Part shown: one piece after another, positions 1 through 54,603 of the stretch
How positions within the stretch are numbered: the first letter of the stretch is position 1
Layout: every line of letters begins with the position of its first letter
Translations under genes and position numbers: made by a program
The notes under the pieces: generated by a model
Told to the model about the DNA's origin: nothing
What the model saw: only the letters and a program-made list of their open reading frames with translations
Database searches by the model: none
Assembly: GCA_032718475.1 (NCBI GenBank)
Contig: JAUCBJ010006694.1
Span: 29,167 to 93,166 of the forward strand
Length of the DNA stretch: 64,000 bases
DNA from: Nemertoderma westbladi
Lineage: Eukaryota > Animalia > Xenacoelomorpha
Direction: 5' to 3'

Positions 1-76
1 TAAAGTATATTTATAAATCAAAAGACATATAAATTTTGGCAGGTTAAACTGCTAAAGGTCTTCAAAAGCGCGTACA
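1..76 (+). repeat. 3' end (U5) of the 5' LTR of element A
   Basis: Near-identical to 10629-10704 and to the end of C's LTR (to 31339); ends ...GCGCGTACA. Confidence 0.9.
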
Positions 77-87
77 ATAACAGTCAT
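77..87 (+). promoter_or_regulatory. Putative primer-binding site, complementary to an LTR-internal 11-mer (self-priming type)
   Basis: ATAACAGTCAT directly abuts the LTR-terminal CA, has no TGG, and is the exact reverse complement of ATGACTGTTAT at 9948-9958 and 30563-30573. Confidence 0.7.
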
Positions 88-354
88 TGACTTTATTGCA
101 GTAAGCAATAAAGTTGAAAGTACCGGTCAAAACCGGTACTTCTGTAGGTCTGTAGGCAGGTAGGCCCAACTGTCCTAACCGGTACTTCCAGTATAAGTAC
201 ATTAGTATTATTTCGATTGTGATCTATAGTATATTGTAGGCTACCAGAGGAATAGGGATTGATCACCCCTCATTCTTTTGTATAGTTTACTTATTTCTGT
301 CAGTTTTATTTCCTAGTAAGTTAATATTGAGCTGAAGACGTGTAAGTCTGCTCA

Positions 355-8089: not shown

Positions 8090-9368
8090 ATGACGGAGTT
8101 GATAGAAGATGATCTTGGTATCAGGGAGCGATATACTCTACCTTTACAAGCATTTGTGGATAGCTTGATACGCGGTGAAACCGATCCAACCATTACGGAG
8201 GACGATGGTCGTTATATCGAACTGCCGACGTCCCAAGAGCAACTTATGCGTGAATTGGACTATCGAAAATTCACCGCTCGCTATACGCATCGTAATAATA
8301 CGTATATGGACCTCCTAACTACCGGCCATCCTATCGATTTACATGATACGGACGATGTAGACACCGAAAGGGAAATGGTTCTATTTAAATATCATACCCA
8401 GCGGCGTCGTAACGATAAATCGAGAATAGATCACGAAAATTCTATTCGTAACAGACTGGGAAGACGAACCAATATGCCTAGAATCTGAGGAGATTCAGCC
8501 TATCGCGCTCGGAACAGCGACAACGATTACATCCTGGAATGGTATCAAGGTCCACTGCGTACGATTATCGCCATGACAACTGTGTTTCTCGGCAACGTTG
8601 TCGGTTATGCGCATCGAGAGACCATGTTACGCCCATGGACACAGACGTCCGCTGTTCCTATTTCCACGAACAACCGGCGATGGAAATTTATTGCGCGTAT
8701 TGCAGATTTAATGATTTGCACGTTTTTGCGGTTTGCCCTCAATTTGTGACTCAATGTCACCATTGTCAACTGGGGGGACACGCCAGTTTCGATTGCCCTT
8801 TTAATCGCAATTTGGAGGGCGTGGATGAAATGATCACACTACGTTACATTAGAGCTTGGGAAGCGAAGGCTGATTTACATCGTGATTCGCGCCATCGCTA
8901 TTATCCTGGACGCGCTTACGAAGGAATTTATGCGTTCCATTCTTATCTATTCGCTTCTGTCGAACAGAAATCACGCATATCGAGTTACAGGAAGTATATC
9001 GACGGCCTTACGAGTACAGAGCCCGCAAATGCGAGTTGGAAAGAACCATTAAACCAAGGAAGTTTCTAACTGCCTATGGTCCACCCACGGCCCTCGTTCA
9101 GACCACTCGTAAAGGACCCGTAAGAGCGGCTGTCTTGAAACGAGCTCTCAAAGCCGTTAGACCCCTCTCACCTGACGTTGATGTCAATCAACCCGGTACT
9201 TCGACTGGCGGATACACCGACCATAATCCTACACCCTCTGATGCAATCATATTGCACCCTTCACCCAGGAGTTATAGCCCTCCTTGTAAAGTGGCTCGCC
9301 CCAAAGAGAAAGGGACTCTGGCTAGCTTTAAAAAACTGCGTAAACGCCGTCCGCGCAAGAAAGACTAA
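8090..9368 (+). pseudogene. 3' accessory ORF region of element A (frameshifted and deleted relative to B and C)
   Basis: ORFs 8090-8488, 8539-9069 and 9036-9368 match pieces of the B/C ORFs; 8-bp deletion near 8553 and a deletion between two GAGTTAC copies at ~8985. Confidence 0.75.
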
Positions 9369-9446
9369 CTGTTTAGAGTATTTACGTATATTAGAAACTG
9401 TGATTTTGTATATTTCATAGACTCAAATCCCATTTTCTGGGAGCGG

Positions 9447-10704
9447 TGTAAAAGCTTCTGTGGGATATAACTGGCCCCTTTGCTTCGCAATCCAGTTTCC
9501 CCCCAGGCGCTGGAATACTCTAAAAGGGTTCTCTAACTGTATATATATTCCCCTCGCCCGCAAGGTACCGTTACAGGTGTTTTAACGGACATAAAAGTCA
9601 TTCTGTTATATACGTGTTTTAGCGGACATGGTAAGGCAAAAAACCTGCAATGCACCAAATACCTTTCACAGCTTAGCCGTGATGATTCACATTACGACAT
9701 CTAACAGCTGGTTGCTGACATGGAAACAGCCATTGGACGCATGGTTCTTTGTTTGGCTTGAGCCAATCAGAGCGTTTTTTCCTGTCGACGTGTAGCTTTT
9801 CGGCCGATCATAAGGAGAGTGTTCAGTCTTACTGTTTTTTACTTGATACTTTGTTGTTATTGCTGTCTAAGCCAGAAACACCGGCTCTAGAGTTAATTCT
9901 TTTCATACTTTAAGAAGAAACATTAGTAGGCTTAAATTATAGAGCGTATGACTGTTATCAGTCAAATCCATTCACAATTCAATACTTTGTTGTTATTACT
10001 GTTCAACATACATTATTATACTGCTATTTACTGTTGTGTTTGGTTGAATATTATTTGGAGAACATATATAAAGAACCCAAATTTCCCAATTTTCTTGATA
10101 CACTACAGGTTAGAGAGACGGGTTATATATATAGCGATTGCGACTTATATTGTTGTGGTTTGTAGTGAATTTAATGCTATTTGATAAGCACTACATTGGT
10201 CCGTTGCTGTTCCCTTTATATATGATAAAATTCATTGACGGTCGGCAAATTAGTGAGCAGTATTGTGTGTTACCGGTAGTGTGCATGATTGTGATTGATA
10301 ACTAAGCATTTCCTAAAGAATGCGCCTCATACGTGAATCTTAAGCCTTACCGACTTACCGTTGTGATTAGTGTAAGTCATATCTCTGTTTACCTAGATAG
10401 AGCGCCACGTCCTAAAGGAACTGTTAATATTTCCCGAAAGTAAATAATATTAGTCAGAAATTAATTATTAACGATCAATCGAATAATACAATACCGTAAG
10501 CTTCACTGCAATAATAATTTAAGCCCTCAGAATCCAGTCTCCCGGGATTATCCAGCGGGTGAATGGACGCGCACTAGGCTGGCTTCTGCTAATGTTGTGT
10601 TTGTTGGTATTAAATATTTGTCATCTTCTAAAGTATATTTATAAACCAAAAGACATATAAATTTTGGCAGGTTAAACTGCTAAAGGTCTTCAAAAGCACG
10701 TACA
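9447..10704 (+). repeat. 3' LTR of element A (1258 bp)
   Basis: Starts TGTAAAAGC after the PPT and ends TACA; CCAAT box AGCCAATCAG at ~9761; homologous to 42909-44061 and 53438-54603. Confidence 0.9.
10090..10704 (+). ncRNA. Putative large conserved RNA structure in R-U5 of the LTR
   Basis: Conserved blocks with variable-length hairpin inserts and compensatory changes among three diverged LTRs (see findings). Confidence 0.55.
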
Positions 10705-11293
10705 ATAACAGTCATACGCTCTATAATTTAAGCCTACTAATGTTTCTTCTAAAAGTATGAAATGAATTGACTCTAGAGCCGTTGTTTCTGGCCTAGACAG
10801 CAATAACAACAAAGTATCAAGAAAAAACAGTAAGACTGAACACTCTCCCTATGATCGACCGAAAAGCTACACGTCGACAGGAAAAATCGCTCTGATTGGT
10901 TCAAGCCAAACAAAGAACCATGCGTCCAATGGCTGTTTCCATGTCAGCAACCAGCTGTTAGATGTCGTAATATGAATCATCACGGCTAAGCTATGAAAGG
11001 TATTTGTCGCATTGCAGGTTTTTTGTCTTACCATGTCCGCTAAAACACGTATATAGCAGAATGACTTTTATGTCCGTTAAAACACCTGTAACGGTACCTT
11101 GAGGGCGAGGGGAATATTTATACAGTTAGAGAACCTTTTTAGAGTATTCCAGCGCCTGGGGGGAAACTGGATTGCGAAGCAAAGGGGCCAGTTATATCCC
11201 ACAGAAGCTTTTACACCGCTCCCAGAAAATGGGATTTGAGTCTATAAAATATACAAAATCACAGTTTCTAATATACGTAAATACTCTAAACAG

Positions 11294-12187
11294 TTAGTCT
11301 TTCTTGCGCGGACGGCGTTTACGCAGTTTTTTAAAGCTAGCAAGAGTCCTTTTCTCTTTGGAGCGAGCCACTTTACAAGGAGGGCTATAACTCCTGGGTG
11401 AAGGGTGCAATATGATTGCATCAGAGGGTGTAGGATTATGGTCGGTGTATCCGCCAGTCGAAGTACCGGGTTGATTGACATCAACGTCAGGTGAGAGGGG
11501 TCTAACGGCTTTGAGAGCTCGTTTCAAGACAGCCGCTCTTACGGGTCCTTTACGAGTGGTCTGAACGAGGGCCGTGGGTGGACCATAGGCAGTTAGAAAC
11601 TTCCGGGGTTTAATGGTCCTTTCCAACTCGCGTTCGCGGGCTCGGTATTCGTAAGGCCTTCGATGTACTTCCTGCAACTCGGGATGTGAGTTAACAAACA
11701 AGTCTCCATAGTCCGGATCCTGACGGATATAATTGATTAAGTTATAGGAATGAAGGTCGCTAGGATTAACACTCCTGAGAAATTTGCGTACGAATTTAGT
11801 TGAAATACATTCTCCGACGCGCTTCAGTAGCTCGTAACTCGATATGCGTGATTTCTGTTCAACAGAAGCGAATAGATAAGGATGGAACGCATAAACTCCT
11901 TCGTAAGCGCGTCCGGGATAATAGCGATGGCGCGAATCACAATGTAAATCAGCGTTCGCTTCCCAAGCTCTGATGTAACGTAGTGTGATCATTTCATCTA
12001 CGCTTTCCAAATCGTGATTAAAAGGGCAATCGAAACTGGCGTGTCCCTTTAGTTGACAATGGTGACATTGAGTCATAAATTGAGGGCAAACCGCAAAAAC
12101 GTGCAAATTATTAAATCTGCAATACGCGCAATAAATTTCCATCGCCGGTTGTTCGTGGAAATAGGAACAGCGGACGTTTGTGTCCAT
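11294..12187 (-). CDS. Accessory zinc-knuckle protein (CCHC array, basic NLS-like C-terminus), element B
   Basis: CAYCRFNNLHVFAVC and CHHCQLKGHASFDC (Cx2Cx4Hx4C); C-terminal KKLRKRRPRKKD; open frame extends upstream to the TGA at 12344-12346. Confidence 0.65.
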   Translation of the reverse strand: MDTNVRCSYFHEQPAMEIYCAYCRFNNLHVFAVCPQFMTQCHHCQLKGHASFDCPFNHDLESVDEMITLRYIRAWEANADLHCDSRHRYYPGRAYEGVYAFHPYLFASVEQKSRISSYELLKRVGECISTKFVRKFLRSVNPSDLHSYNLINYIRQDPDYGDLFVNSHPELQEVHRRPYEYRARERELERTIKPRKFLTAYGPPTALVQTTRKGPVRAAVLKRALKAVRPLSPDVDVNQPGTSTGGYTDHNPTPSDAIILHPSPRSYSPPCKVARSKEKRTLASFKKLRKRRPRKKD

Positions 12188-12343
12188 GGGCGTAACATGG
12201 TCTCTCGATGCGCATAACCGACAACGTTGCCGAGAAACATAGTTGGCATGGCGATAATTGTACGCAGTGAGACACTGTGGACCTTGATACCATTCTAGGA
12301 TATAATCGTTGTCGCTGTTCCGGGCGCGATAGGCTGAATCTCC

Positions 12344-12742
12344 TCAGATTCTAGGCATATTGGTTCGTCTTCCCAGTCTGTTACGAATAGAATTTTCGTG
12401 ATCTATTTTCGGTTTATCGTTACGACTCCGCTGGGTATGATATTTAAATAGAACCATTTCCCTTTCGGTGTCTACATCGTCCGTATCATGTAAATCGATA
12501 GGATGGCCGGTAGTTAGGAAGTCCATATACGTACCATTACGATGCGTATAGCGAGCGGTGAATTTTCGATAGTCCAATTCACGCGCAAGTTGCTCTTGGG
12601 ACATCGGCGGTTCGATATAACGACCATCGTCCTCCGTAATGGTTGGATCGGCTTCACCGCGTATTAAGCTATCCACAAATGCTTGTAAAGGTAGAGTATA
12701 TCGCTCCCTAATACCAAGATCATCTTCTATTAACTCCGTCAT
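12344..12742 (-). CDS. Accessory ORF3 N-terminal part (132 aa, unknown function), element B
   Basis: Start MTELIEDDLGIRERY conserved in all four copies (MIELIEDD in D). Confidence 0.6.
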   Translation of the reverse strand: MTELIEDDLGIRERYTLPLQAFVDSLIRGEADPTITEDDGRYIEPPMSQEQLARELDYRKFTARYTHRNGTYMDFLTTGHPIDLHDTDDVDTEREMVLFKYHTQRSRNDKPKIDHENSIRNRLGRRTNMPRI

Positions 12743-13203
12743 ATCTGCTATCTGAGTTTATTAATATCAAATAAGTTTGTATTTAGGCGAGCGGGCGTCG
12801 CTGCCTACTTTTCTTTGCCCCCGGACAGTGGGATTCTCAGCGCCGATGTACCGTCGTCGCGGTGTTTACGCCAACATGTAGCAACAGCACGACAACGATA
12901 ACCGGCACAAGTCACTCCACTGTCCGTCCCAAAGGCTTGGATCCACTTAGGTTCTTTCTATAGGAGAGTTGGGCTATTTTTACAATTGCGACTAGCTACT
13001 GTAAACATACTTTAGCAGTAACATTCACCTATAAACGCACAAATTCCACACAACTGTCAACAACTGCACACACACAGGCCATTTGTCCGTTAGTCAGTGC
13101 CTTCCAGAATGTCACTTTATTACTGTGTATCCTTGGATACTAACAGTGTGCTATGTATTCTCTATGCTAGGCAATGGGACAAGCTTTCTATTGTTCTTTT
13201 AAC

Positions 13204-14739
13204 GTTCGCGCTATTCATTAATGATTTAGAGGCGGAACTACGGGATGGAGGAATTCAGGGCCTGGATGTAGGTGCGCTCAAACTTTTCCTGTTACTTTAT
13301 GCTGATGATATCGTGTTGGTTAGTGAAAGTATTAGTGGACTACAGGGTGCACTCGATATCCTTGGTTGCTATGCCGACTATTGGGGTTTGCGGGTTAACA
13401 TGGACAAGTCCAATATTATGATTTTTAAAAACGGTGGGAATCTTGCACAGCGTGAACGGTGGACTTTCCACAATCGTGAACTCAAAATTGTCTCTGACTA
13501 TACTTACCTAGGAGTAATATTTTCTCCCTCTGGCGGATTCAGGAAAGCGGAGTGTTCTCTTGCAGAGAAGGCCTCTAAAGCATATTTTGTACTCTTAAAA
13601 TATTTTTCGAAATTCCCAAACATTTCACTGAGCTTAAAAGTTCATATCTTCAATACACTTGTGAAACCGATCCTGGAATATGGAAGTGAAATCTGGGGTT
13701 TCCACAGCGCTCCAGAGTGCGAACGAGTTCAACTTAAATTTCTAAAACGGTTATTGGGGGTAAAGTCAGGAACACCTAACTTCATGAGTTATGGTGAAAC
13801 TGGAGTATTCCCGCTAGCATTGTCTAGGGAAATTCGTATAGTAAAATATTGGATTAAAATTATTAATTTACCAGACTCGCGTTTAGTCAAGCAGGCGTAT
13901 CTTATGCTACTTCAGGACTGTCTGACTTTCAATGACAGTAACTGGGTTTCTGGTGTGCGCGATCTGCTTAATAAGTCTGGTAAAAGTTGGGCGTGGGTCA
14001 ACCAGTCGGTCAGCTGTAATAAAATGTTTATTAAATCTCTAGAACGTACATTACAGGATAACTTCATCCAGTCTTGGTGGAGTGCGATAGAAAATTCTCC
14101 CAAGGGAATTTGGTATTTCAAGAGGGTGTTTGGGGCAGAAAACTACTTAAACTCACTTAGTGGTTACCCTACACTGTGTAAGACTGTGAGCCGCCTAAGG
14201 TGTTCCTCACACGATCTACAATTTGAATACGGACGTTGGCATAATGTACCGCGTAACGATAGATTATGCCAGCTCTGTAACCTCCAAGAAGTGGAGGATG
14301 AATACCACTTTGTACTTAAATGTCCGCTCTATCATGATCTACGCATTAAATTTTTGGCAGTAAGATATCATAGAAATCCTTCATCGGTCAAATTTCTTGA
14401 ACTCCTCAGTCTGACGTCGGATTCCAAAATTAAGCAGTTTGGTGTGTTTTTATATCACGCCTTTAAATTACGACTGGAGGCTAAAACCTAGTTAGTACGT
14501 ATTACGTGTGTTGAATGTTTGTGGTGTGAGTATGTGTTGGTAGTTCTTCGGTTTAGGTTGTTATTATGTAGATATAATATATATTATGTTCCTACTTTAC
14601 GCACTGGGTTCACCTATGTATTTCTTTTCTAAATGTATTTGTACTCCGGTATTGTAGCGTGCAGTTGATACTACATACTTTGCTCTCAACAATAGCCTTA
14701 ATTGGCTTGTTGTGATTAACAATAAACATTATAACATTA
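13204..14739 (+). mobile_element. 5'-truncated non-LTR retrotransposon (RT C-terminal half; RTEX-like) inserted in element B
   Basis: LLYADDIVL, YLGV, C-terminal RLCQLC...EDEYHF..C; coding to 14491; AATAAA plus short AACATTAT tail; TSD TTTAAC at 13198-13203 and 14740-14745. Confidence 0.85.
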
Positions 14740-15907
14740 TTTAACTTGTTTCTAATTCTAGCGTGGGTGTTGCTATGGTGACATTATGGAATGCTAGCGG
14801 TAGAATTAGGGTAATTCTCATGCATACAGATCTGGGATGCTATTTAGTAATAATTCTTTAATTGTCAATATCCTCTTTATGCATGATTTTGTTAATTTTA
14901 TCGGCTATTGACTATATGTTGGAGATTCTCGCACTCTAATACACTCAATAGGATGAATCTCCGCTCCCATGATCTATTAATTAATAGAATTTTGGGAATG
15001 TTATAAATTGTACAAAATGACAATTTATGAAATTCATTTAAAATATGAATTTAAATTTATTCCCGTGAATTTTATTATTTGATGTTAAAATTGACACAAT
15101 TTGATTCCAGAGCAGGTCTGGGGACATAGGATCCTTAATTCTATGAAATTTGTCTTTTAAGAGTATCGGGAAGTGCTACGATATCTTAATCGACTAGAAT
15201 TGTTAACGGATCCGAATTTTACAGATTTTAATAAATATTAAGTTAATATTTAAGATAGGCACCGATTTATTCCAGAACTTGTCTGGGGACGTTAACCACT
15301 GATTCTAGAATTTGTCTTTCAAGTATATCGGTGGGTGCCGCGATATCTTAATCGACTAGAATTACAGATGGTCAAAAAGTTTAACAGATTTATTTGCGTT
15401 TTACGCTACTGTTAGAGGGACATCACGCTACTATATGTATTATTTAATATAAGGTAGAAGAGCAATATCGCACGAAGCAATGTCAGTGTGAAGAGGCAAG
15501 TCGTTTCCAAGGTCTACCCAGAGCTTGGCTTAGCCGAGACACGAGGATCTGAACTTTGCATTCCTAATACTCTGCCTACCAATAATACTTGAATATAGTA
15601 GTGGCTTTATTGTACTTTAAGAAGTACGGACATTTCATCTTACTGTAGTCACGTATTTATAATATGATACTGACAGTAAGAAAAGAGAAAAAATTATTTC
15701 TCGCCGTCGCACTAAATATATATTATAAGTAATTACGTACGTAATAAACACTAATATATTGCACTAATCTACTAAATAATACTAAAATAACATTCTACTA
15801 AATAAAATTGAATAAAAACGATTATAATAAAGTACATAATAAAGTTCGCATGTAAAAATATAATAAAATAGATAAAACAATATAGTCATACACCCACTCC
15901 AGACGTA

Positions 15908-18900
15908 TCACGTTAGGGAGTCCCTAGATGTTTGAGGAATTAGGGAGGTGGTCGTGGGAAGAGTGTCTTGCCTTCCATAGTTTCCAGAGAGTTCCCTGTC
16001 TCTTTCCAGTAAACATAAACGACCAACTGGGCGATTGAGTTGTTGCGTCTCAAAGATGATGCCTGGTTTCTTGAAGTTACGCCGCATGACGATGAGTTCT
16101 ACTGAGCGTACTAAACCATCATCTGAAATGTGTGTCTCGATGATACGACCTGTCTGCCACCGTTTACGTGGGAGGTCTGGATCTACAATAAGCACCATAT
16201 CTCCGGCGCTGACGTTTTCTTGCTGCGCAAACCACTTAGTTCGAAGTTGTAGCGTGGGCAGATAATGTTTCTCGAAATGGTCAGCGAAACGACGGGATAG
16301 CAACTGCATAAGTTGCCAAGTTCGATGGCAGTATTCGTCTCCGTCGGCAATCTCCGATCGTGGGAGCATGGCTACGGGTTTCTTCAGTAGGAAGTGCGCG
16401 GGTGTTAGCGCTTCCAGGGAATTGGGACTCGATGAGACTGGCATAAGCGGTCTCTCGTTGAGATAGGCAGCGATTTCCTCCATTAACGTCCGCAAAAGTT
16501 CGTCGGTGAGATACGCGCGGCATGGCACTATAAAGTGAAATGCGGTTTTGACACTTCGAATTAATCTCTCCCAACTTCCTCCCCACCAAGGGGCGTCGGC
16601 AGCGTTGAAGGTCCAGCTAGACGCTGTTATCCTTAGCTGGTCGTCCACCTGTGTTTGGTTCCAGTCCTTCACGTAAGCCTGTATCTCGTTGTTGGCACCT
16701 ATGAAGTTCGTTCCTTTATCCGATCTCATGGTATTACTTGTCCCGAAGCGAGCGATCTGTCGTCGTAAACTTAAGACGAAGCTGTTAGTAGATAGATCGT
16801 TCACCATATCGAGATGGATGGCTCTACAAGTCATGCACACGAAAATGACACACCATCTCTTGACTATAGTCCTCGCACGATATACTTCAATAGGGCCAAA
16901 TAAATCTACACCAGTATTAGTAAAAGGTGGTTCATAGAAGCTTACTCGTTCCCTAGGTAATTCTGCCTCTCGCTGTGTTAAAGGCCTACTGAATGCTTTC
17001 CTACAGGGTATGCAGTTCCTAAGAACTTGGTTCAGAGCTCTACGGGGTTTATCAAAATAATAGCGAGTTCGAATTTCGCTAAGAATTCGTTCTCTACCAG
17101 CATGGTAAAGTTTACCGTGAACGTCTACAATCATCTTGATTTGTACTTCAAGATTTCTAATAAGTATGGGGAATTTGGTGTCAAAGGATAAGGGCGCGTT
17201 GGTGAGTCTTCCTCCAACACGTATTAACCCATCTATCATTGTGCTCGAGAATCGATCCCTTAAGCGCATCTGTGGATTTCTCAACAACAGGAAGTACTTT
17301 TCGGAATCCTCATAGCATTGCAGGAGTCTCAGTATCTGTTTATTTGTTTCTTCATACTCCTGGTGACTAATTTTCTCTTTTAGAAAATGATCAGATATCT
17401 TATATTTGGGTAAATTCTTAATAACATGAACTTGTGCAGATGTCAATGGAGCGTGATCACTAATGGTCTTCGTCCTGGAGTAGTGATGATGAAAACATCG
17501 TCTTAAATATGTGACGGCTTTACAGAGCCGATTCCAGGAACTGTAATGATGCATTGCTCTCTGCAGCATGGGTGAGATTCCTTGCGAGACGTCTGGTATT
17601 CCAGATTTCCAATCTCTATCTCTAATTTCCACAACAGACTTATTTGTGTTGAGGGATTGTGGATCCGAAACATCATTCCCGGAAGTGTGTAATACTGATA
17701 GATCGATAGTCGGTTTAAATAACTTCGATTTACTCGCCCGGGTTTTAGGTTTGACGGTCTCCGCTCCCTTGGCTTGTCTAATCTCTGCCGTAGTAAGGTG
17801 AGGAGGCCATTCATCCTCTTCCTTGCTCAGGAAGTCGGGTCCACCCAACCAATCTGGAGTATCTATCAGTTCCTGTGGAGTTGCTCCCCTGGAGGCGATA
17901 TCGGCTGGATTAATCGTACCAGGGCAATGTCTCCATTGATCTATCTTTGTGCGACTAAGAATAATAGCTACTCGGTTAGTAACAAAAACGCTAAACTGAC
18001 AGACTTCATTGGTGAGATACTCCAACACGAGTAAAGCGTCGGTCCAATAAACCGTTTTCTCCAGTGGATAGTCGATTTGTTCCGTTACGTTCCGGCCGAT
18101 GGCTGTAGCGTATAAAGCCGCCTTTAACTCCGCTCGAGGAACCTTTAACTTGTTGTTAATCAATGCCTTAGAGGTAACCAAGGCGACCTTGATTCCATCC
18201 GGAGTTTCGACTCGCAGATATGCTACTATACCTATTCCCATATCGCTGGCGTCTCCAAACACATGGAGTTGATAAGAATACTTAGGAAGAACATGGCCAA
18301 AATATGCATGGGAAATTATAAAGTTCTCGATGGCAGGTAGAGAATCTTCCCATTTCATCCATTTCTTCAACAATTCTCCCTTAAGCGGATCGTCCCATGA
18401 GTGGTTTTCAAGCCACATCTGTTGTACTAAACTCCGAGCAATCAATATAACTGGGCTAATAAATCCCAATGGGTCGAAATAAGTGCTCAGGATACTTAAA
18501 CAAATCCGTTTGGTCCGAACTGGATTATCTCGCTGTTTCAACTGAAAAAACAGGATGTCTCTTTCAGTGTCCCACTTCAAGCCTAGCGTCTTGGTTTCAG
18601 GAAGATCGTCCTTTATTAAGTCTAGATCTTTCGCTCCGCGGTCTTCTACCGGTATCGCTTCCAGAAACTCACGGGAGTTGCTAGTGAATTTCGTCAGTCG
18701 AAATCCACCTCTTTTCAAACACTCTACCGTTCCTTTCGCGACAGCTATGGCTTCTTCTACTGATGGAAGGGACCTTAAATTGTCGTCCATGTATATATTG
18801 CGTTTTATGTTGTCTATCACTTCTTTGGAGAAGGAGTCTCGGTTATCATTCGCAGTGGTTCGCACCACGGAGCAGGCGTTGGAAGGGCTTGATATGATCC

Positions 18901-19135
18901 CAAAAGCCTGGATGGTCATCCAGTACTCTACCGGTTTCTGGTTGAGGTCTCCTTCAGGCCACCACAGAAATCTCAGGCTATCTCTATCTCTATCCAGCGC
19001 CTTGACTTGTAAGAACATTCCTTCTATATCAGAGGCGAACGCGATGGAATATTGTCTTAATCTTAATAGTATTCCCAACAAAGATTGGAGTAAGTTGGGT
19101 CCTGGTAACAACTCGGAATTGAGGGATTGGCCCAT
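15908..19135 (-). CDS. pol: Bel/Pao Pol (RT-RNase H-integrase), N-terminally truncated, element B
   Basis: DIEGMFLQV, YMDD, VFGDASDMG, WTDA, NPADIASRG, H..H..CIPC, GVDLFGP, SDKGTNF, PWWGGSWERL. Confidence 0.95.
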   Translation of the reverse strand: MGQSLNSELLPGPNLLQSLLGILLRLRQYSIAFASDIEGMFLQVKALDRDRDSLRFLWWPEGDLNQKPVEYWMTIQAFGIISSPSNACSVVRTTANDNRDSFSKEVIDNIKRNIYMDDNLRSLPSVEEAIAVAKGTVECLKRGGFRLTKFTSNSREFLEAIPVEDRGAKDLDLIKDDLPETKTLGLKWDTERDILFFQLKQRDNPVRTKRICLSILSTYFDPLGFISPVILIARSLVQQMWLENHSWDDPLKGELLKKWMKWEDSLPAIENFIISHAYFGHVLPKYSYQLHVFGDASDMGIGIVAYLRVETPDGIKVALVTSKALINNKLKVPRAELKAALYATAIGRNVTEQIDYPLEKTVYWTDALLVLEYLTNEVCQFSVFVTNRVAIILSRTKIDQWRHCPGTINPADIASRGATPQELIDTPDWLGGPDFLSKEEDEWPPHLTTAEIRQAKGAETVKPKTRASKSKLFKPTIDLSVLHTSGNDVSDPQSLNTNKSVVEIRDRDWKSGIPDVSQGISPMLQRAMHHYSSWNRLCKAVTYLRRCFHHHYSRTKTISDHAPLTSAQVHVIKNLPKYKISDHFLKEKISHQEYEETNKQILRLLQCYEDSEKYFLLLRNPQMRLRDRFSSTMIDGLIRVGGRLTNAPLSFDTKFPILIRNLEVQIKMIVDVHGKLYHAGRERILSEIRTRYYFDKPRRALNQVLRNCIPCRKAFSRPLTQREAELPRERVSFYEPPFTNTGVDLFGPIEVYRARTIVKRWCVIFVCMTCRAIHLDMVNDLSTNSFVLSLRRQIARFGTSNTMRSDKGTNFIGANNEIQAYVKDWNQTQVDDQLRITASSWTFNAADAPWWGGSWERLIRSVKTAFHFIVPCRAYLTDELLRTLMEEIAAYLNERPLMPVSSSPNSLEALTPAHFLLKKPVAMLPRSEIADGDEYCHRTWQLMQLLSRRFADHFEKHYLPTLQLRTKWFAQQENVSAGDMVLIVDPDLPRKRWQTGRIIETHISDDGLVRSVELIVMRRNFKKPGIIFETQQLNRPVGRLCLLERDRELSGNYGRQDTLPTTTSLIPQTSRDSLT

Positions 19136-19169
19136 ATATAGAGCAGAGCCATCAAATACGACTCGTACT

Positions 19170-29496: not shown

Positions 29497-29652
29497 GGAG
29501 ATTCAGCCTATCGCGCCCGGAACAGCGACAACGATTACATCCTAGAATGGTATCAAGGTCCACAGTGTCTCACTGCGTACAATTATCGCCATGCCAACTA
29601 TGTTTCTCGGCAACGTTGTCGGTTATGCGCATCGAGAGACCATGTTACGCCC

Positions 29653-30588
29653 ATGGACACAAACGTCCGCTGTTCCTATTTCCACGAACAACCGGTGATG
29701 GAAATTTATTGTGCGTATTGCAGACTCAATAACTTGCACATTTTTGCGGTTTGCCCTCAATTTATGACTCAATGTCACCATTGTCAACTAAAGGGACACG
29801 CCAGTTTCGATTGCCCTTTTAATCACGATTTGGAAAGCGTAGATGAAATGATCACACTACGTTACATCAGAGCTTGGGAAGCGAACGCTGATTTACATTG
29901 TGATTCGCGCCATCGTTATTATCCTGGACGCGCTTACGAAGGAATTTATGCGTTCCATCCTTATCTATTCGCTTCTGTCGAACAGAAATCACGCATATCG
30001 AGTTACGAACTACTGAAGCGCGTCGGAGAATGTATTTCAACTAAATTCGTACTCAAATTTCTCAGGAGTGTTAATCCTAGCGACCTTCATTCCTATAACT
30101 TAATCAATTATATCCGTCAGGATCCGGACTATGGAGACTTGTTTGTTAACTCACACCCCGAGTTACAGGAAGTACATCGACGGCCTTACGAATACCGAGC
30201 CCGCGAACGCGAGTTGGAAAGGACCATTAAACCACGGAGGTTTCTAACTGCCTATGGTCCACCCACGGCCCTCGTTCAGACCACTTGTAAAGGACCCGTA
30301 AGAGCGGCTGTCTTGAAACGAGCTCTCAAAGCCGTTAGACCCCTCTCCCCGGACGTTGATGTCAATCAACCCGGTACTTCGACTGGCGGATACACCGACC
30401 ATAATCCTACACCCTCTGATGCAATCATATTGCACCCTTCACCCAGGAGTTATAGCCCTCCTTGTAAAGTGGCTCGCCCCAAAGAGAAAAGGACTCTGGC
30501 TAGCTTTAAAAAACTGCGTAAACGCCATCCTAGGCCATCCATAGGCTTAAATTATAGAGCGTATGACTGTTATCAGTCCAATTCATAA
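29653..30588 (+). CDS. Accessory zinc-knuckle protein, element C (C-terminus altered by deletion)
   Basis: Nearly identical to 11294-12187; same frame as 29098-29496. Confidence 0.6.
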   Translation: MDTNVRCSYFHEQPVMEIYCAYCRLNNLHIFAVCPQFMTQCHHCQLKGHASFDCPFNHDLESVDEMITLRYIRAWEANADLHCDSRHRYYPGRAYEGIYAFHPYLFASVEQKSRISSYELLKRVGECISTKFVLKFLRSVNPSDLHSYNLINYIRQDPDYGDLFVNSHPELQEVHRRPYEYRARERELERTIKPRRFLTAYGPPTALVQTTCKGPVRAAVLKRALKAVRPLSPDVDVNQPGTSTGGYTDHNPTPSDAIILHPSPRSYSPPCKVARPKEKRTLASFKKLRKRHPRPSIGLNYRAYDCYQSNS

Positions 30589-31339
30589 CACATCATATAT
30601 CAAGTTATATCAACTTGTTTCTATTCTTGTATTATCGGTTCAATATACATTATTATACTGCTGTTTACTATTGTGTTTGGTTGAATATCATTTGGAGAAC
30701 ATATATAAAGAACCCAAATTTCCCAATTTTCTTGATACACTACAGGTTAGAGAGACGGGTTATATATAGCGATTGCGACTTATATTGTTGTGGTTTGTAG
30801 TGAATTTAATGCTATTTGATAAGCACTACATTGGTCCGTTGCTATTCCCTTTATATATGATAAAATTCATTGACGGTCGGCAAATTAGTGAGCAGTATTG
30901 TGTGTTACCGGTAGTGTGCATGATTGTGACTGATAACTAAGCATTTCCTAAAGAATGCGCCTCATACGTGAATCTTAAGCCTTACCGACTTACCATTGTG
31001 ATTAGTATAAGTCATATCTCTGTTTACTTAGATAGAGCGCCACGTCCTAAAGGAACTGTTAATATTTCCCGAAAGTAAATAATATTAGTCTGAAATTAAT
31101 TATTAACGATCAATCGAATAATACAATACCGTAAGCTTCACTGCAATAATAATTTAAGCCCTCAGAATCCAGTCTCCCGGGATTATCCAGCGGGTGAATG
31201 GACGCGCACTAGGCTGGCTTCTGCTAATGTTGTGTTTATTGGTATTAAATATTTGTCATCTTCTAAAGTATATTTATAAACCAAAAGACATATAAATTTT
31301 GGCAGGTTAAACTGCTAAAGGTCTTCAAAAGCGCGTACA
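30542..31339 (+). repeat. Partial 3' LTR (R-U5) of element C
   Basis: Matches ~9927-10704. Confidence 0.9.
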
Positions 31340-32351: not shown

Positions 32352-35300
32352 TAGTCTGATTTTTAACTCAAAGATAGCTGTAGGCCTGCCGACAATAAGA
32401 CCAAGAAAGATACCAGTACTAGGCCTATCCAGATTTTATATTTTGAGTCAGACTACAGCCAGACAGCACAATGTCACCGCTCTTAATCTCCACAGTTGCC
32501 ATCGTTCTGGGCCGTTTCGTTGTGGCAGAACCATCCGATCCATGGGGTAACCCTGCAACCCACCCAATACCGGTATTGGACTGGTTTGCCGAACACCCTG
32601 TCGATACCGTTTCGAACTGCCGCGCCGAATCGACGGAGATGTGGTCGACGAGTGGATTTAGCCTCTACTGCTCTCATCGGGGAAGAAGATCTTGGGTCTC
32701 CTCTCCACGAACTAGAGGCCTAATCGCCAAACTCTGTCTTCTGTCTCTGGTTGGGGATATTGAAACCAACCCAGGACCCAGCAGGACGCGGGCCCCGAAG
32801 ATCAACTGTCCCGTCTGTCAACGAGGAACAAACTCTCGGAGTAAGATCATCCAATGCGAGAGTTGTGACACATTTGTACATTTAAAATGTTACCGTAGGA
32901 AAAGCAGTAATTTATTCTCCACCAGAAACAATCTTGAGCCAAGTTTTCTCTGCAATAGCTGTATTTTTACCGAACTTCCCTTTCATGATACTATTTTAGA
33001 ATCAGAAACCGACGATTCATTCCTCACATCGCCTCTGCAAACTCCAAGTGATGCTGAGAGTGAAACTTTTACATTTTTTAAGAAAAAAGGTCTGCATTTT
33101 TTGCATTTAAATGCACGATATCTTCTTCCCAAATTTTCCGAAATTCGTATTTTAATCAATAAATCCAATCCAGCAGTTTTAACAATCTCTGAAACTTGGC
33201 TCGATGATAGCGTTTCTTTATATATGTATATTTATATTGATAATTACGTAGTTTTACGTAAGGATAGGGACAGACAAGGTGGTGGTGTCCGTACTTACAT
33301 TCGATGTGATTTAGCTTTTAATCGTAGGGAAGATTTAGAGACTTGTGACGAAGTTTTACTGATGGAACTTTTACTTCCTAAAACTAAACATATTTTAATT
33401 GGTACTTTATATCGGCCCCCTAAACAATCAGATTTTTTGCAAAGTTTTGAAAGTACAATTTTATGTAATCTTAGTTCAGACTGTGAAATATATTTCTATT
33501 ATATAGTGATTTTAATATCTGTTACCATCACAAAGCATCCCCCATCCGTAAACAGTAACAAAGTATTTTAAATTTGTTTGGTTTAAAACAAATTATTCGA
33601 GATTCTACCAGAATTACCAGTAAAACTTCTACTTTACTAGATCACATCCTTTGTAATAATACCGATATTATTTCTCAATCTGGGGTTTTACCTTTAGGTC
33701 TAAGCGATCATTTTATAGTTTTTTGCACAAGAAAGACACAACAATCTTTTTTCGGGGATCAAAAAACAGTAACTGTTAGGTCTATGAAAAATTACAGCAA
33801 GGAACGCTTTTTAAGTTTGTTAGTAAATTCTGACTGGGAACCCTGTTTTAAGGCCGCTGACATTAACCTTGCCTACACTGTTTTTCAAGATATATTTCTA
33901 AAGGCACTTAATACTGTAGCACCAATTAAAGAAATTAGTCTTAAACAACGCACTGAGCCCTGGATGACCTCGGGTATTCTTAGTAATATCAGAGAAAGAG
34001 ATAACTTTTTGTATAAATTTAGGAAATACCGTATTTTAGCTGATTATAATAAATACTGCAAATATAGAAACCTTGTCCAACGGGAAATAAAAAAAGCGAA
34101 ATCTGAATATTTGTACAACAAAATAAGTGAGAATAAAGATAATCCTAAAAGTCTATGGTCTACCCTAAAATCTTTAGGTTATAAAAACCTTAAATCTAAA
34201 TCGAATATTGTTCTGCAAGATAACGGTGAGCTGATTCATGATCATACTCTAGTTAGTAATTTATTTAATAATTATTTTACTAATGTTGCCTCTAATTTAG
34301 TTAAGAAGTTACCGTTATCAAGTAATTAATATAGTATAGGGTCCGAAACTCTAAATAATTTTTATTTAGAAAAGTTACAAAATTCAGAAAAGTTATTTTT
34401 AAAACCCGTTTCTGAGGATTTCGTTTTTCAAAATCTACTTAGCCTATCAGCCTCAAAAAGTACCGGTCTAGACCTAATACCTGCCCGTTATCTTAAGGAT
34501 GGTGCTGAAGTACTTAAAGTGCCTATTACTTTTATTATTAATTACTCTATCGTAGATAATGTAGTACCAGACGAACTGAAATTAGCTAAGGTTGTTCCTC
34601 TGTATAAAAAGAATAGTAAAGTAGAACCCTGTAATTACAGACCTGTTAGTATCTTAAGTATTGTATCTAAAATTCTAGAACGTTCTGTTTTTCTACAGCT
34701 GGAAGCACATCTGAGTAGGCTAAATTTGATCTATGAACTTCAGTCCGGTTTTCGTAAATCATATTCTACAGACACCTGCTTTATTAACTTAACTGATACA
34801 ATTAGATGTAATAACGCAAAGGGTTTATATACTGGTATGGTAATGTTGGACTTGCAAAAGGCTTTCGATACTGTAGATCACGAAATTCTGCTTGGTAAGT
34901 TAGGCCTGATGGGTGTAGGTTCTATAGACTGGTTCATGTCCTACCTGTCAGACAGAGGTCAAACTGTAGTCATTAGCAAATCGCAGACTACTGTACAAGA
35001 GATTACCTGTGGTGTACCGCAAGGTAGTATATTAGGTCCTCTGCTTTTTGTATGCTATGTAAATGATATGATAAGTAGTATAGATCCCGATTTTAAACTC
35101 ATTTTATATGCCGACGACAGTGCTCTTATTTTCTCTTATAAAGATCCTATCCATATTTCCCAAAAGTTAAGTGCAGTTCTAGAATCCTGTAATGAGTGGT
35201 TGGTTGATAATAAGCTATCCATTCACTACGGTAAGACTGAAAGTATTTTGTTTGGTTCCAAAAGAAAGTTAAAGAAGGTAACTAAGTTTGATGAAGTCAC

Positions 35301-36317
35301 TAGTAATGGACATAAGATTGAAAATAAAAAGGAAGTTAAATATTTAGGCGCCACATTGGATAACTGCTTATCAGGAGAAAGTACAGTGAAAAATATTTTC
35401 TCGAAAGTTAACAGTAGGCTTAGGTTTCTATACAGAAATAAAAATAGTTTGAACACCAACTCCCGCAAGTTACTTTGCTCTTCTTTAATACAGTGTCACA
35501 TGGACTATGCGTGCTCTTCTTGGTATGAAGGCTTAACCAAACAGTTTAAATGTAAATTACAAGTAGCTCAGAATAAAGTAGTACGATTTATTAAAGACTA
35601 CAAACCTAGGCACCACCTAACTCCAGATGACTTTTCTGAATCTGGACTACTTAACATAGATAGTAGAGTTAAGCAGCTACGCATTAACCATGTGCATAAA
35701 GTGTATAATGGTAAATGTCCCAATAATTACCTAAAACAAAAATTCAACAGAGTACGCGATACACACTCTTATAGTACCAGAGCTAGTGCTTCAAACTTCT
35801 ACCTCCCGAATTGTAAATCCTTTGAATCTGATACTTTCTTTTTTAACGGCATTAAAAATTGGAACGCTCTGCCTAATGAAATTAAAAACCTAGATAATCA
35901 ACATTCTTTTAAATCAGCAGTTAAATCTCACCTCCGTGTGCAATGTAAAAATAGGTACAATAGTCCTACAGTAAGTTATTAGTTTATTAATTATTTACTA
36001 TTTATACTGTAAATACGTTTTATATTAAATTGTTCTGTACATTACATCTTTATCGTTGAATCGGACATTGTCACGCGCTCGGTAAAGTAGTACTTGTACA
36101 TAGTGTAATTACGTTTTATATTGTTTTTTTTTTACATTGTTAGCGTAGTGTAATATTGTATTTGTAACCAAGTAACATAAAGAACGCCCTTGGAAATAAG
36201 CTGCAAAGCTTTAGGGGTAATCCTATATGTTATGTTGGACAATACCTTTATACCGGTACATTGTTTGGTGTATTTGTTATTGTTTTTACATAATGTATAA
36301 ATAAATCTATCTATCTA
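32352..36317 (+). mobile_element. CR1/L2-group LINE (2A-PHD-APE-RT), with stop and frameshift lesions
   Basis: GDIETNPGP; PHD CPVC..CESC..H..C..CNSC; APE HLNARYL, SETWL, SDH; [29 protein letters not shown]; 3' AATAAA(TCTA)n tail at ~36299-36317. Confidence 0.9.
32756..32779 (+). other. 2A-like ribosomal skipping motif DIETNPGP
   Basis: Matches D(V/I)ExNPGP and is preceded by hydrophobic LCLLSLVG. Confidence 0.8.
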
Positions 36318-41140: not shown

Positions 41141-41914
41141 CTATTGTTGGCTGTTCAAAGAAGATTGGTATTTATCAATGAAATGTTGTTCGTAGCCTTC
41201 TAATAAGTTTTCATGTCGACAACAGAAGAATGGGGCCACTTTAAATTGGTTTTCCCCGCAGTTGTGAAAGTGTTTGCTACACCTTAAATGTCTATAACGT
41301 TCATTGAGTATTTGGTTTCTGTGGAGATTAATTCGGTGTCTGAAGTCCATGGTCTGACCAATATAATTTACGGGACAGTTCTGACAATACATGACGTATA
41401 CAACATTGGTGCTTCTGCAGGAAAGTTCGTGCTTAATTTTAAAAGTTTCCCCATTCTGCATAGTCAGGCTATCTCCCTCGACTAAAATGTCGCAAATGTC
41501 ACAAAGTGAGTGTTTGCACTTAGTAATGCCAGGTGTAATCACTTTCTTTTGGCGGCCCAAAATGCTTTTTAGTGAAGGAGGTTGTCTAAACGCACAGATT
41601 AGTCTTTTATTTTTCAAATTGTTCCCGATTCTCCCATTCCCCACAGATAGTAAGTTAACCGCTGTCTGAGATCCGTATTTATTCATTATGATTTTCTCAA
41701 TTTTATCTTCTAATTCGGCAAGTGTTAGGTTAGCATAGGGGACTGCACATTTGGTACCCATGGCGGTGCCCTTCTTCTGATTGTGATACGATTTAGCACC
41801 TGTTACAGCTGAAGTAAAAGTAAAAAAATTGTTTTTCAGAACAATTTCTAGGCCATCGATAATAAATTCTTTGGTAAAGCGGTCAAGTTTCGATCTATTA
41901 CGGTTGTGGTACAA
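41141..41914 (-). pseudogene. Penelope-like element remnant: RT fragment fused by deletion to a GIY-YIG endonuclease
   Basis: KGTAMGTKCAVPYANL (Penelope RT); C..C..C, NVVYVMYCQNC, YIGQT, R...H (GIY-YIG). Confidence 0.85.
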
Positions 41915-42449
41915 ATAGAGTTAATAACTTAGACTTGAATGATGTAGACTTTAATAAACTCCAGTTACCAAGGTAACTAGATATTTCTTGAATGTTTTGA
42001 GTTTTACAAAAAGTTCCAAAGAGGAGTCCAGATAACACATAGGGGCCATCCATAAATGACGTCACGCTGGACAGGGGGGGGGGGGGGGGTTTGGTATTTC
42101 GTGACGATTTGTGACGAGGGGGAGGGGGGGGGGGGGGGGTGTCCGCAATTTCGTGACGTCACATTATAAGTTTCCGATAAAAATTACTGCATATTAAATA
42201 CATAACATGTATTTATACTTGTATACTATAAAACGTGTATACTATTAACGTGTTTACTATTAAACTATTACCTCTTCCAATGATAACCATTAAAATCTTA
42301 CATTACGACCTCTACTGCCCTTCCATAATTGGTAAAATTAGAGAGCGTGTTTGTAAAGAATGTCATATTTACTTTGCATCGAAAGTTTTACTAAAAATCT
42401 TACATCCCTTCATGGTAGCGGTAGTTCCAAAACCCGTTTTGATTATCAA

Positions 42450-42908: not shown

Positions 42909-44061
42909 TGTTCGCGCTTTTAGACCTTTAGCAGTTTAACCTGCCAATTTTAGTTGTCTTTTTTTTTATAGATCGACTTTAGCCTAGACCAATTATTTAA
43001 TGTACGGAAGTTACATCCGCCGAAGCCAGTCTGTGCGCGACCATTCACCCACAGTTAAGGGAGACTGGATTCGGATGCTTTGATAGTGATTGCAGTGTAG
43101 ACCTACTGTATTATTCGATTGATCGTTAATATATAATCTCTGACAATATATTTACTTTCGGGGAAATATTAACAGTTCCTTTAGGACGTGGCGCTTTAAG
43201 TATAAAAACAGAGTTATGACTTATACTAATCACAACAAGATGGCCAAAGAGTTTCGTAAAAAGCGCATTCTTTAGGAGATGCTTTATTAACCCTCACACT
43301 ACTTCACACGGCTTCACACTACTTCACACTACCTCACACTGATCTGCCGACCGTCACTGAATTTGATCATATATAAGGAGGATCGCAACTGACACATGTA
43401 GGGATTATGAAATAGCATTTAATTCACACTGAAACCACTATAATGTAAGTCGCAGTTGCTACCGGTAAACCTGTTCCTCTAACCTTCAGTCATCAAGAAG
43501 ATTGGGGGTTTTATGATTATTTATCGGTATTCTCCAAATATATCAGCAATATACAATTAACATAACACCAATTAATAACAGAAGCAAATAATGCGGTGAA
43601 CAGTCAGTATGTGTTACTTATGCAGTGTTCCATGTGCAGCAATGCATGAATTGCGGTGTGATGCTGTAGTTGAATCGTTAATAGTTTTACGTTCTTGTAA
43701 TCAAAGCCATCAGATGAGATGTTTAGGCCAAAGTCTGAAACTTCTACACAGAAGCACAGAAGAATTCCAAGCCGGTGTTCTGAGGCTCAGAAATGGTTAA
43801 CAAAGACCGTAATGCATTGCGCGGGTTTCCTGTAGGCCCTTGTCCAACATAAAGTAAAAATCGCTCTGATTGGCTGTGCTAGGCAGAACAAAGAAAGGTT
43901 CCACGTTTACAGTAAATCAGCTGACAGATTTCGTCATCTGAGCTCCAGTCTTTTAGAGTATTAGGCGCATTGCGGCAAAAATGACTTGTTACGTCCGCTA
44001 AAGCACCTACACGGTACATTGCGGGGAAAAATGACTTGTTATGTCCGCAAAAGCTTTTACA
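42909..44061 (-). repeat. Solo LTR of a diverged subfamily of the A-D Bel/Pao family
   Basis: TG...CA termini; perfect 5-bp TSD GTAAT (42904-42908 and 44062-44066); conserved blocks shared with 9447-10704. Confidence 0.9.
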
Positions 44062-50012: not shown

Positions 50013-50334
50013 CACCGCGATGGGGAGGACTCCACCCCCTTGCTTGGAGAAACCAAACAGGTTGGCGCCAAAGAACGTGGGGCGAACAGATTCCGGAATG
50101 GTGCCGGCGGCCATGACGTCGATGAACCGGGAGAGACTGGAGACAAGTCGGTTTCCAGCTTCTCCGTTCGTGTGGCCGATAAGATCTTTCAAGATCTGCG
50201 GCCGCATTCCGTCGGGGCCACTGGCGCTGCCGCACGGGAACGACGCAACGAGCTTCCTGACTGTTGCCCGCATGATATTGTTCCCTGAGAATGCCTCTGC
50301 ATCTGTTAACTTACCACGAGCTGTCAATCAGGAA

Positions 50335-53437: not shown

Positions 53438-54603
53438 TGTTTGCGCTTTTAAGACCTTTGACAGTTTAACCTGCCAAAATTAGAATGTCTTTTGGATGAT
53501 AGATAGTCTTTAGCCTATGACGAGTATTTGATACACTACATTAGCCGAAGCCAGTCTATGCGCAATCATTCACCCGTTGGATATACCCGGGAGACTGAGT
53601 TCGGAGCTTAATGATTGATGGTGTAAGCCTAATGTATTATTCGACTGATCGTAATATATAATCTCTGACAAAGATTATTCACTTTCGGGAAATATTAACA
53701 GTTCCTTTAGGACGTGGCGCTCTAAATATGTAAACAGAGTTATGGCTTAAACTAGACACAACGAAAAGGCTATAGATTCACGTATATGGCGCATTCTTTA
53801 GGAGATGCTTTGTTATCAGTTACACTCATACACAATGCTGCACAATACTGCACACTAATCTGCCGACCTTCACTAATTTTAGTCACGTATAAAGAGAGCA
53901 ACAGACAATTTATGTTGGGCATATGAAATAGCATTAGATTCACTTCAAACCACTTAACATAGGTTGCAATCGTTTATCTGTAACCGGTCTCTCTAACCTT
54001 TAGTATATCAAGAAGGTGGGGTATCTGACTATCGATCAGTATTCCGATATAATATTTCATCAACCAATATAATGAATAACCGACAGTAAAGCAGTAATAT
54101 TAATGTATAAATGATTATTAAGTGAATGAGTTAACTTGTGTAACTCGTGATAACAGATATACGTTCTATAATTAAGCCTACTAATGTAAGACTAAAGACT
54201 GAAAACACGGAGGTGCCAAAAGCCGATGTTCTTAGGCTCTGGGCAAAAACATAACACTGAACTACTGAGTTCTGTATACACCTCCAACACAGAGACAAAA
54301 AACGCTCTGATTGGTCAACCGAACAACGAGAGAACAAAGAAACAAAGAAATGTCGACGTGGCAATATCAGCTGTTAGCCGTCGTCATGGTAGCGACACTG
54401 TTTTCAAGAGTATCTAGCTTATCGCGTCACGAGATTGCGGATTATGTCCTCTAAAGTACAAATACAGTACAAATACAGAAGAAATGACTTTTATGTCCTC
54501 TAAAACACCAGTACAGCAAGGACACGGCCTTTTTATGCCTGGCAAACCAACTACAGAGTACTTTAAGGGAAAATAACCGGTTAATGACGCAAAAGCTTTT
54601 ACA
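53438..54603 (-). repeat. 3' LTR of element D (1166 bp)
   Basis: TGTAAAAGC...GCGCAAACA, following the same PPT as A and B. Confidence 0.9.

Follow-up and report, generated by a model that had tools for sequence, protein, structure and literature searches.

Among the described systems, the closest to the element analysed here is the LTR retrotransposon Tf1, which primes its own reverse transcription. As set out in the accessible part of PMC10085805, this self-priming needs three duplexes (the pretzel), namely that of primer with primer binding site (PBS), plus two more that join strands next to the PBS with LTR sequence downstream of the primer. Tf1 RNA is cut by RNase H between bases 11 and 12 (PMC7175516, part available), and insertion that is directed by the PBS and independent of integrase has also been described for Tf1 (PMC11042837, likewise in part). 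In Ty1, a pseudoknot beside the PBS affects reverse transcription and compensatory changes rescue it, according to the available portion of PMC3592414. BEL/Pao elements are described as using host tRNA for priming, their replication being little understood, and the ICTV account of Belpaoviridae gives an 18-nt PBS for host tRNA-Arg or tRNA-Gly and an LTR of 0.2-1.2 kb (PMC8742986).

The window, that is, the whole 64,000-nt stretch of Nemertoderma westbladi DNA that was analysed, is a cluster of animal BEL/Pao LTR retrotransposons. The domains DUF1759, Peptidase_A17, Integrase_H2C2 and DUF5641 follow each other in this order, and Pol has its best homologues in BEL/Pao polyproteins, with identities of about 37-45%. 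Gag and Pol domains of BEL/Pao are present with the integrase after RT/RNase H, the arrangement that defines Belpaoviridae, and the Pol of copy B carries acidic motifs that we take to be of the RNase H type. A chromodomain, as expected of Ty3/gypsy chromovirus Pol, gave no match in the domain search of the window. The LTR features are those of BEL/Pao as well, with TG...CA ends, a polypurine tract (PPT) and a target-site duplication. Contigs from public runs showed that the element family is abundant.

The window opens with the last 76 nt of the 5' LTR of element A, the remainder of which lies mostly upstream. The 3' LTR of A (9447..10704, plus strand) measures 1258 bp, runs from TGT to ACA and follows a PPT (9439..9446, plus strand); a PPT-like tract and then TG mark the left end at 9447 in A and likewise in B and D. 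Copy B (10705..19169, minus strand) comprises an inverted U3 and internal region. Copy C, with the loop 9-mer and LTR end discussed below at 31199..31339 (plus strand), has a partly deleted U3 and an intact helix. A homologous solo LTR of 1153 bp (42909..44061, minus strand) is flanked by a 5-bp target-site duplication, which bears out the label it had been given in an earlier note on this DNA, and the 3' LTR of copy D occupies 53438..54603 (minus strand). Four LTR copies span the helix region, namely the 3' LTR of A, C, the solo LTR and D. As A and C are 96.5% identical they were counted once, which leaves three independent sequences (n=3) from three subfamilies that are 70-76% identical.

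Several side observations concern the same cluster. A block of about 35 nt (10399..10433, plus strand, limits approximate as read from the alignment) is invariant in all four LTR copies, and exact patterns drawn from it gave 0 matches in the viral and metagenome contigs searched. Inside this block, PBS bases 78-84 have a complement in the invariant 7-mer 10420-10426, which may act on the PBS as a decoy or as another docking site. Between pol and the 3' LTR there is an additional ORF, about 350-380 aa long (29497-30585, plus strand; 8482-9368; 11297-12343, minus strand; 55099-56241, minus strand), which carries CCHC zinc-knuckle-like motifs. Pfam gave only a sub-threshold zf-CCHC_3 match, in the copy of A, the Atlas leads (0.78-0.84) were mostly zf-CCHC-type clusters, and neither search gave an env-like signal. 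Its product could be a nucleic-acid chaperone. The window also contains a second BEL/Pao family with no visible LTRs (45004-50327, minus strand), a LINE with PHD plus RT (32447-35982, plus strand) and a fragment of GIY-YIG (Penelope-type) (41141-41920, minus strand).

The PBS of A (77..87, plus strand, 11 nt) lies directly after the 5' LTR and is the exact complement of LTR positions 9948-58, a match held by 0 of 2000 shuffled LTRs. Complementarity of this PBS to the LTR copies is 11/11 in A and C, 7/11 in the solo LTR and 9/11 in D. The 11-bp primer duplex named earlier is predicted at full length with the element's own LTR, and it is the candidate for the primer/PBS duplex of a Tf1-type pretzel. 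Positions 9948..9958 (plus strand) are the predicted self-primer, with its predicted 3' end at 9958. TGG is absent from the first 25 nt after the 5' LTR, on which ground the element is judged to lack the 18-nt tRNA-type PBS of the ICTV description. ARAGORN detected no tRNA gene in the window, hence no element-encoded tRNA is available there. The leader (88..116, plus strand) offers a further duplex: its positions 93-102, which start 5 nt after the PBS, match LTR positions 10505..10514 (plus strand) by 10 Watson-Crick pairs (P 0.017 in 2000 shuffles), or else fold into a hairpin of the leader itself (-12.3 kcal/mol). The LTR strand is the predicted 5' strand of a third pretzel duplex, and the window holds one leader and one PBS for this comparison.

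Copy B is joined to the LTR end of A exactly through the PBS 11-mer. A junction of this kind would result from a cDNA end with the PBS on it, via read-through or annealing. Copy B could have arisen from plus-strand read-through into a long RNA primer or from integrase-independent insertion at PBS homology, and its sequence fits both origins.

Around the primer, the hexamer TCAGTC at 9958-63, found in A and C only, is initiator-like. The transcript could therefore start after the primer, in which case the 5' primer copy would be untranscribed. In A, C and D the primer is preceded at 5 nt by a splice-acceptor-like TTATAG (9937-9942), which reads TTACAAG in the solo LTR; by eye, no conserved splice donor was seen upstream of it. 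The window's LTR gave no sign of a primer assembled across a splice junction (4 nt, P 0.65).

The earlier note had claimed that a 9-mer in a loop pairs with the last 9 nt of the LTR and that the two change together. All nine 9-mers that it listed were recovered at their positions and strands: in A the loop 9-mer at 10564..10572 and the LTR end at 10696..10704 (plus strand), with the intact last 9 nt of the 5' LTR at 68..76 (plus strand); in C 31199-31207 and 31331-31339; in the solo LTR 43043-43035 and 42917-42909; and in D 53568-53560 and 53446-53438. In the alignment of the four LTR copies, the helix 10564-72/10696-704 has the described form of 6 bp, a purine-A mismatch and 2 bp. Its 8 pairs divide into 5 invariant, 2 changed on both sides and 1 broken. 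The two-sided changes, A-U/U-A and C-G/U-A, fall on different branches (A/C against the solo LTR and D; D against the rest), and the two compensatory pairs are independent as the note had it. The broken pair occurs only in the 3' LTR of A, by a G10698A substitution within a CpG, and the G is kept in its 5' LTR. The mismatch is present in all four copies and changes from G to A among them, still never paired. The loop 9-mer is 132 nt upstream of the last 9 nt of the LTR, and the helix contains no G-U pairs. Covariation among three subfamilies stood as far as there are three independent sequences, A and C counting once; the 2-bp tip is invariant and contributes no covariation.

The frequency of such a helix by chance was evaluated with copies C, solo and D over 849 columns; three shuffling schemes were used, with 1000 column shuffles for each. 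Helices of at least 6 bp that carry at least 2 two-sided changes and terminate within the last 6 columns appeared in 1-4 of 1000 shuffles, a significance that depends on an end position picked after the helix had been seen. Within the 185 columns that the finding spans, any such helix occurred in 0.6% of 5000 shuffles; for one anywhere in the LTR the figure was 19-23%. The same alignment, scanned exhaustively, returned 22 helices of at least 6 bp, exactly 3 of which have at least 2 two-sided changes. Each of these involves the primer or the LTR end, and at least 3 such helices were obtained in 1-2 of 1000 shuffles. In view of this covariation and these shuffle frequencies, the LTR-end helix is probably real, on thin data (n=3).

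RNAalifold, which cannot represent pseudoknots, did not choose the LTR-end helix over the whole R-U5 region and did choose it in a short region, with 10576-80 given another partner. In copy C the helix has a pair probability of 0.31-0.45 in the nested-only ensemble, displacing the enclosing stem. The variant table from the public contigs, which are short and unphased, has no entry at either 9-mer; since it also omits the known difference at 10698, the table is blind at these positions.

The loop 9-mer is enclosed by a stem of 12 bp with a 1x1 mismatch (10528-40/10576-88, feature 10528..10588, plus strand), which closes a small hairpin together with the loop 9-mer. Because the 9-mer lies inside this stem, the LTR-end helix crosses it, and an H-type pseudoknot is predicted with the enclosing stem as stem 1, the LTR-end helix as stem 2 and linkers of 17-23, 2-3 and 98-107 nt. 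The 12 pairs of the enclosing stem show 1 two-sided change, 2 one-sided changes to wobble pairs and 0 broken pairs. Its reported covariation was thus upheld by one two-sided change, while the G/A change in the CAGTCT stem proved to be one-sided (wobble) and not compensatory. The G-U pairs are consistent with the plus-strand RNA and not with its complement. In a contig of run X4, pair 10528-10588 changes from C-G to U-A, a further two-sided change, read by eye in a contig whose two loose ends, by their lengths, seem to come from one record; the public-run contigs hint in this way at additional pair-keeping changes in the stem. The long loop of the pseudoknot holds a conserved stem and hairpin (10648..10690, plus strand) with 10 pairs counted, 0 broken and no two-sided change. 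As a separate observation, a conserved AAGC at 10521-10525 could pair in all copies with 10581-10585 on the 3' strand of the enclosing stem; one contig variant changes both sides, and the contact would be an alternative or a triple-strand one.

Of the proposal that a long-range helix or pseudoknot is stacked against the primer duplex, the stem-crossing helix, ending at the last LTR base beside the PBS, is supported by covariation. As the 2-bp tip needed for stacking is invariant, we infer the stacking on the primer duplex and the positioning of the cleavage by analogy with the Tf1 pretzel (PMC10085805, available part).

The other two covarying helices of the LTR both bind the primer (9945-51/10327-33 and 9954-59/10297-10302). 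Together they form a primer clamp (10297..10333, plus strand), whose arms 10297-10302 and 10327-10333 pair with 9954-9959 and 9945-9951 and flank a nearly invariant hairpin (10306-10323). With 5 of its 13 pairs changed on both sides and 0 broken, the clamp shows the strongest covariation in the LTR, and a 7-bp helix like its own, with 3 two-sided changes, was seen in 3-8 of 1000 shuffles. The clamp helix spans the predicted cut, and its pairing implies that 9945-47 are transcribed as well. Neither the clamp nor the third duplex with the leader had been mentioned earlier, and the clamp covaries better than the LTR-end helix. Since the clamp excludes pairing of the primer with the PBS, a two-state switch is suggested. 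Rough duplex energies, loops not counted, are -12.4 and -11.8 kcal/mol for the state with primer and leader paired (ON) and about -15.2 and -12.3 kcal/mol for the clamped state (OFF); by this rough measure the two states lie within about 3 kcal/mol of each other. When the natural stretch 9935-10715 is folded as a nested ensemble, the primer 3' end is divided between PBS and clamp. Copy C lacks a following PBS, and there the probability of the upstream clamp helix is about 0.65. The bulged base of the clamp hairpin at 10310 (T/C) was also seen to change together with 10459 (A/G), a possible 5-bp contact with one two-sided change only.

Taken by analogy with Tf1, the LTR-end helix is rather probably the LTR-end duplex of a pretzel, reached by a switch from the clamp, stacked on the 11-bp self-primer/PBS duplex and followed by an RNase H cut after 9958. 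The sequence-level support comprises the covarying helix, the H-type pseudoknot topology, the non-tRNA PBS, the 10-bp LTR/leader match, the covarying clamp and the PBS junction of copy B. The LTR-end duplex joins the strand 5' of the PBS to LTR sequence downstream of the primer, as in a Tf1-type pretzel, and the predicted duplexes follow each other along the element in the same order as in Tf1. In the OFF state the clamp would hold the primer and the leader would remain in its own hairpin; in the ON state the primer would be on the PBS and the leader on 10505-14. The LTR-end helix would be compatible with both states, and stacking would favour ON. The strand made up of 10696-10704, PBS and leader would then run unbroken along three successive pairing partners, the scissile bond at the joint, and the element's RNase H would cut after base 9958 as in Tf1 to free the primer. 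In the 3' copy of R, with no adjoining PBS, the clamp would mask the second primer copy and leave it unused. Stacking, cutting, the switch and the transcript start are predicted steps throughout.

An alternative that we consider unlikely, yet deserving of attention, is that the helix is real, as RNA or single-strand structure, and serves another step, such as a dimer contact of two genomes, packaging, masking of a poly(A) signal within the 5' LTR, or a fold of the minus-strand strong-stop DNA that serves strand transfer. Watson-Crick covariation is blind to whether a helix is intra- or intermolecular and to whether it forms in RNA or in its DNA complement, and the LTR-end helix has no G-U pair to tell these apart; moreover, both of its strands contain the self-complementary GCGC, which would suit a dimer contact. 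Poly(A)-signal-like hexamers are found in the long loop of A and the solo LTR, but D has none there. Such roles have been proposed for the pseudoknot and palindromes near the PBS of Ty1 (PMC3592414, in the part available). The 3' strand of the helix, however, runs to the final base of the LTR and directly abuts a non-tRNA PBS, which is the place of the duplex required in Tf1 (PMC10085805, in part).

It is distinctly improbable that the cut is instead made in the clamp state, with the three-way junction at 10297-10333 guiding cleavage by RNase H or by the RNA itself, the primer handed to the PBS afterwards and the LTR-end helix only docking. The clamp does carry the strongest covariation, with the 5/13 pairs and the 3-8 of 1000 shuffles given above, and its helix crosses the predicted cut; its hairpin and the 35-nt block are almost invariant against a background identity of 70-76%. 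Small ribozymes leave a cyclic phosphate and not the 3'-OH that priming requires, which argues against cutting of this kind. No Rfam family matches any LTR copy at E up to 1, the single match in the window (E 0.18) being in the gag ORF of D. Compared by eye with consensus features, the junction does not fit a hammerhead, HDV-like, hairpin, group I or group II core, and the H/ACA template was rejected in the same comparison. We regard as still more doubtful a bolder version of this reading, in which the 760-nt R-U5 RNA is a two-state priming machine: the three-way junction would hold the primer and itself cut it out with a 3'-OH, and the LTR-end pseudoknot would then receive it at the PBS in a rod of about 40 stacked bp. 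Were this self-cutting true, a family described as tRNA-primed would contain a primer RNA that processes itself and belongs to none of the described classes.

A chance match, or correction of an inverted repeat by template switching with no selected function, is very unlikely. Three sequences are few, and such a helix turns up somewhere in the LTR in about 20% of shuffles; on the other hand, the end-anchored P is 0.001-0.004, and correction would be expected to remove the purine-A mismatch, which persists in all copies even through its change from G to A. Finally, the 9-mers could scarcely be the terminal inverted repeats of a 141-bp LTR starting at 10564, even though the loop 9-mer begins with TG after a purine-rich stretch and is an imperfect inverse of the LTR end: this reading was rejected by the LTR boundaries (a PPT precedes the left end, 9447, in A, B and D) and by the 5-bp target-site duplication of the 1153-bp solo LTR, and no pile of loose contig ends stands at 10564 among the 24 of 52 rows listed.

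Distant relatives were surveyed among 80 BEL/Pao loci from metagenomes, 13 of which have a readable LTR and leader. The window's LTR itself has no real match among the 80 loci (best E 0.049). In 8 of the 13 relatives (L033, L030, L034, L038, L044, L046, L016 and L040), the LTR contains a complement of the PBS of 10-15 nt only across a GT...AG junction, that is, a splice-like one, with P 0.033 or less in 60 shuffles each. In L033, L038 and L044, and also in L046, a near copy of the PBS makes a second primer-complementary site 36-67 nt ahead of the LTR end. It reaches P under 0.03 in 3 of these 8 loci and a combined P of 0.005, for an idea formed after two of the sites were seen. This second site may parallel the clamp of the window's element. 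An LTR-end duplex in 11 distant relatives gave P 0.095-0.98 against shuffles in a single-sequence test; as the window's own copies also fail it (0.23-0.30), the test is without power. In an alignment of three divergent copies (L044, L041 and L066) the LTR end is invariant, and no covarying LTR-end helix was found.

A literature search, which covered mainly the main texts of articles outside subscription journals, found no paper on self-priming or an LTR-end helix in BEL/Pao. By term search, PMC3118150, PMC554778, PMC11181671 and PMC12789967 contain no passage on priming or the U5-IR, and in the part of PMC3651342 available only the title of a reference bears on them. If the pretzel holds, a second, distant LTR lineage shares the three-duplex geometry of Tf1, and its occurrence in two distant lineages would suggest that RNase H generally requires this geometry to turn an RNA duplex into a primer. 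The clamp is relevant to a difficulty that every self-priming element with its primer in R must face, namely that the 3' primer copy has to stay unused. The copies also yield exact predictions, namely the paired bases, the primer end and two competing states.

Compared with the known systems, the element agrees with Belpaoviridae in its Gag-PR-RT-RH-IN order, TG...CA LTRs, PPT and animal host; it differs in having no tRNA-type 18-nt PBS and an LTR of 1258 bp, at or just above the range of 0.2-1.2 kb (PMC8742986). As in Ty1, a pseudoknot adjoins the PBS, here a predicted one, but Ty1 uses a tRNA primer, and there the pseudoknot links the very first bases of the RNA with gag sequence instead of a loop with the LTR end (PMC3592414, available part).

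The likeness is greatest to the Tf1/sushi group (Tf1, Tf2, Tj1 and Tosmo, chromoviruses of Metaviridae). In both, a non-tRNA PBS of 11 nt follows the CA of the LTR and is complementary to the element's own LTR (PMC10085805 and PMC7175516, parts available), and two more duplexes join PBS-adjacent strands to LTR sequence downstream of the primer, the leader duplex being only a candidate here (PMC10085805, same part). The PBS begins with ATAAC in Tf1 (PMC11042837, in part) as it does here. The element would thus work like Tf1 yet lie outside the Tf1/sushi group, its domains being those of BEL/Pao and not of Ty3/gypsy, and its primer is 746 nt before the LTR end. Here the strands of the LTR-end duplex flank 123 nt of structured RNA, and the duplex crosses a 12-bp stem. 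Its counterpart in Tf1 is reportedly a simple 7-bp stem with a 25-nt loop. A covarying clamp competes for the primer here, unlike in Tf1, and a primer at the 5' end of the transcript, a Tf1-type trait, is only putative in this element. The U5-IR stem of Rous sarcoma virus and Tf1 is said, in work attributed to Lin and Levin 1998 and Miller et al. 1997, to be a local hairpin that places the U5 terminal bases in a helix beside the PBS. The terminal bases are paired beside the PBS here as well, but their partner is a long-range strand from the loop of another stem, and a purine-A mismatch stands two pairs in from the end. Among the described systems compared, none matches the pseudoknot topology or the covarying clamp on the primer. 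The earlier idea of the helix as an unusual device gave way, since its position is that of a duplex known from Tf1-type self-priming. By this analogy, the LTR-end helix would be the counterpart of the Tf1-type duplex, a new variant of a known mechanism.
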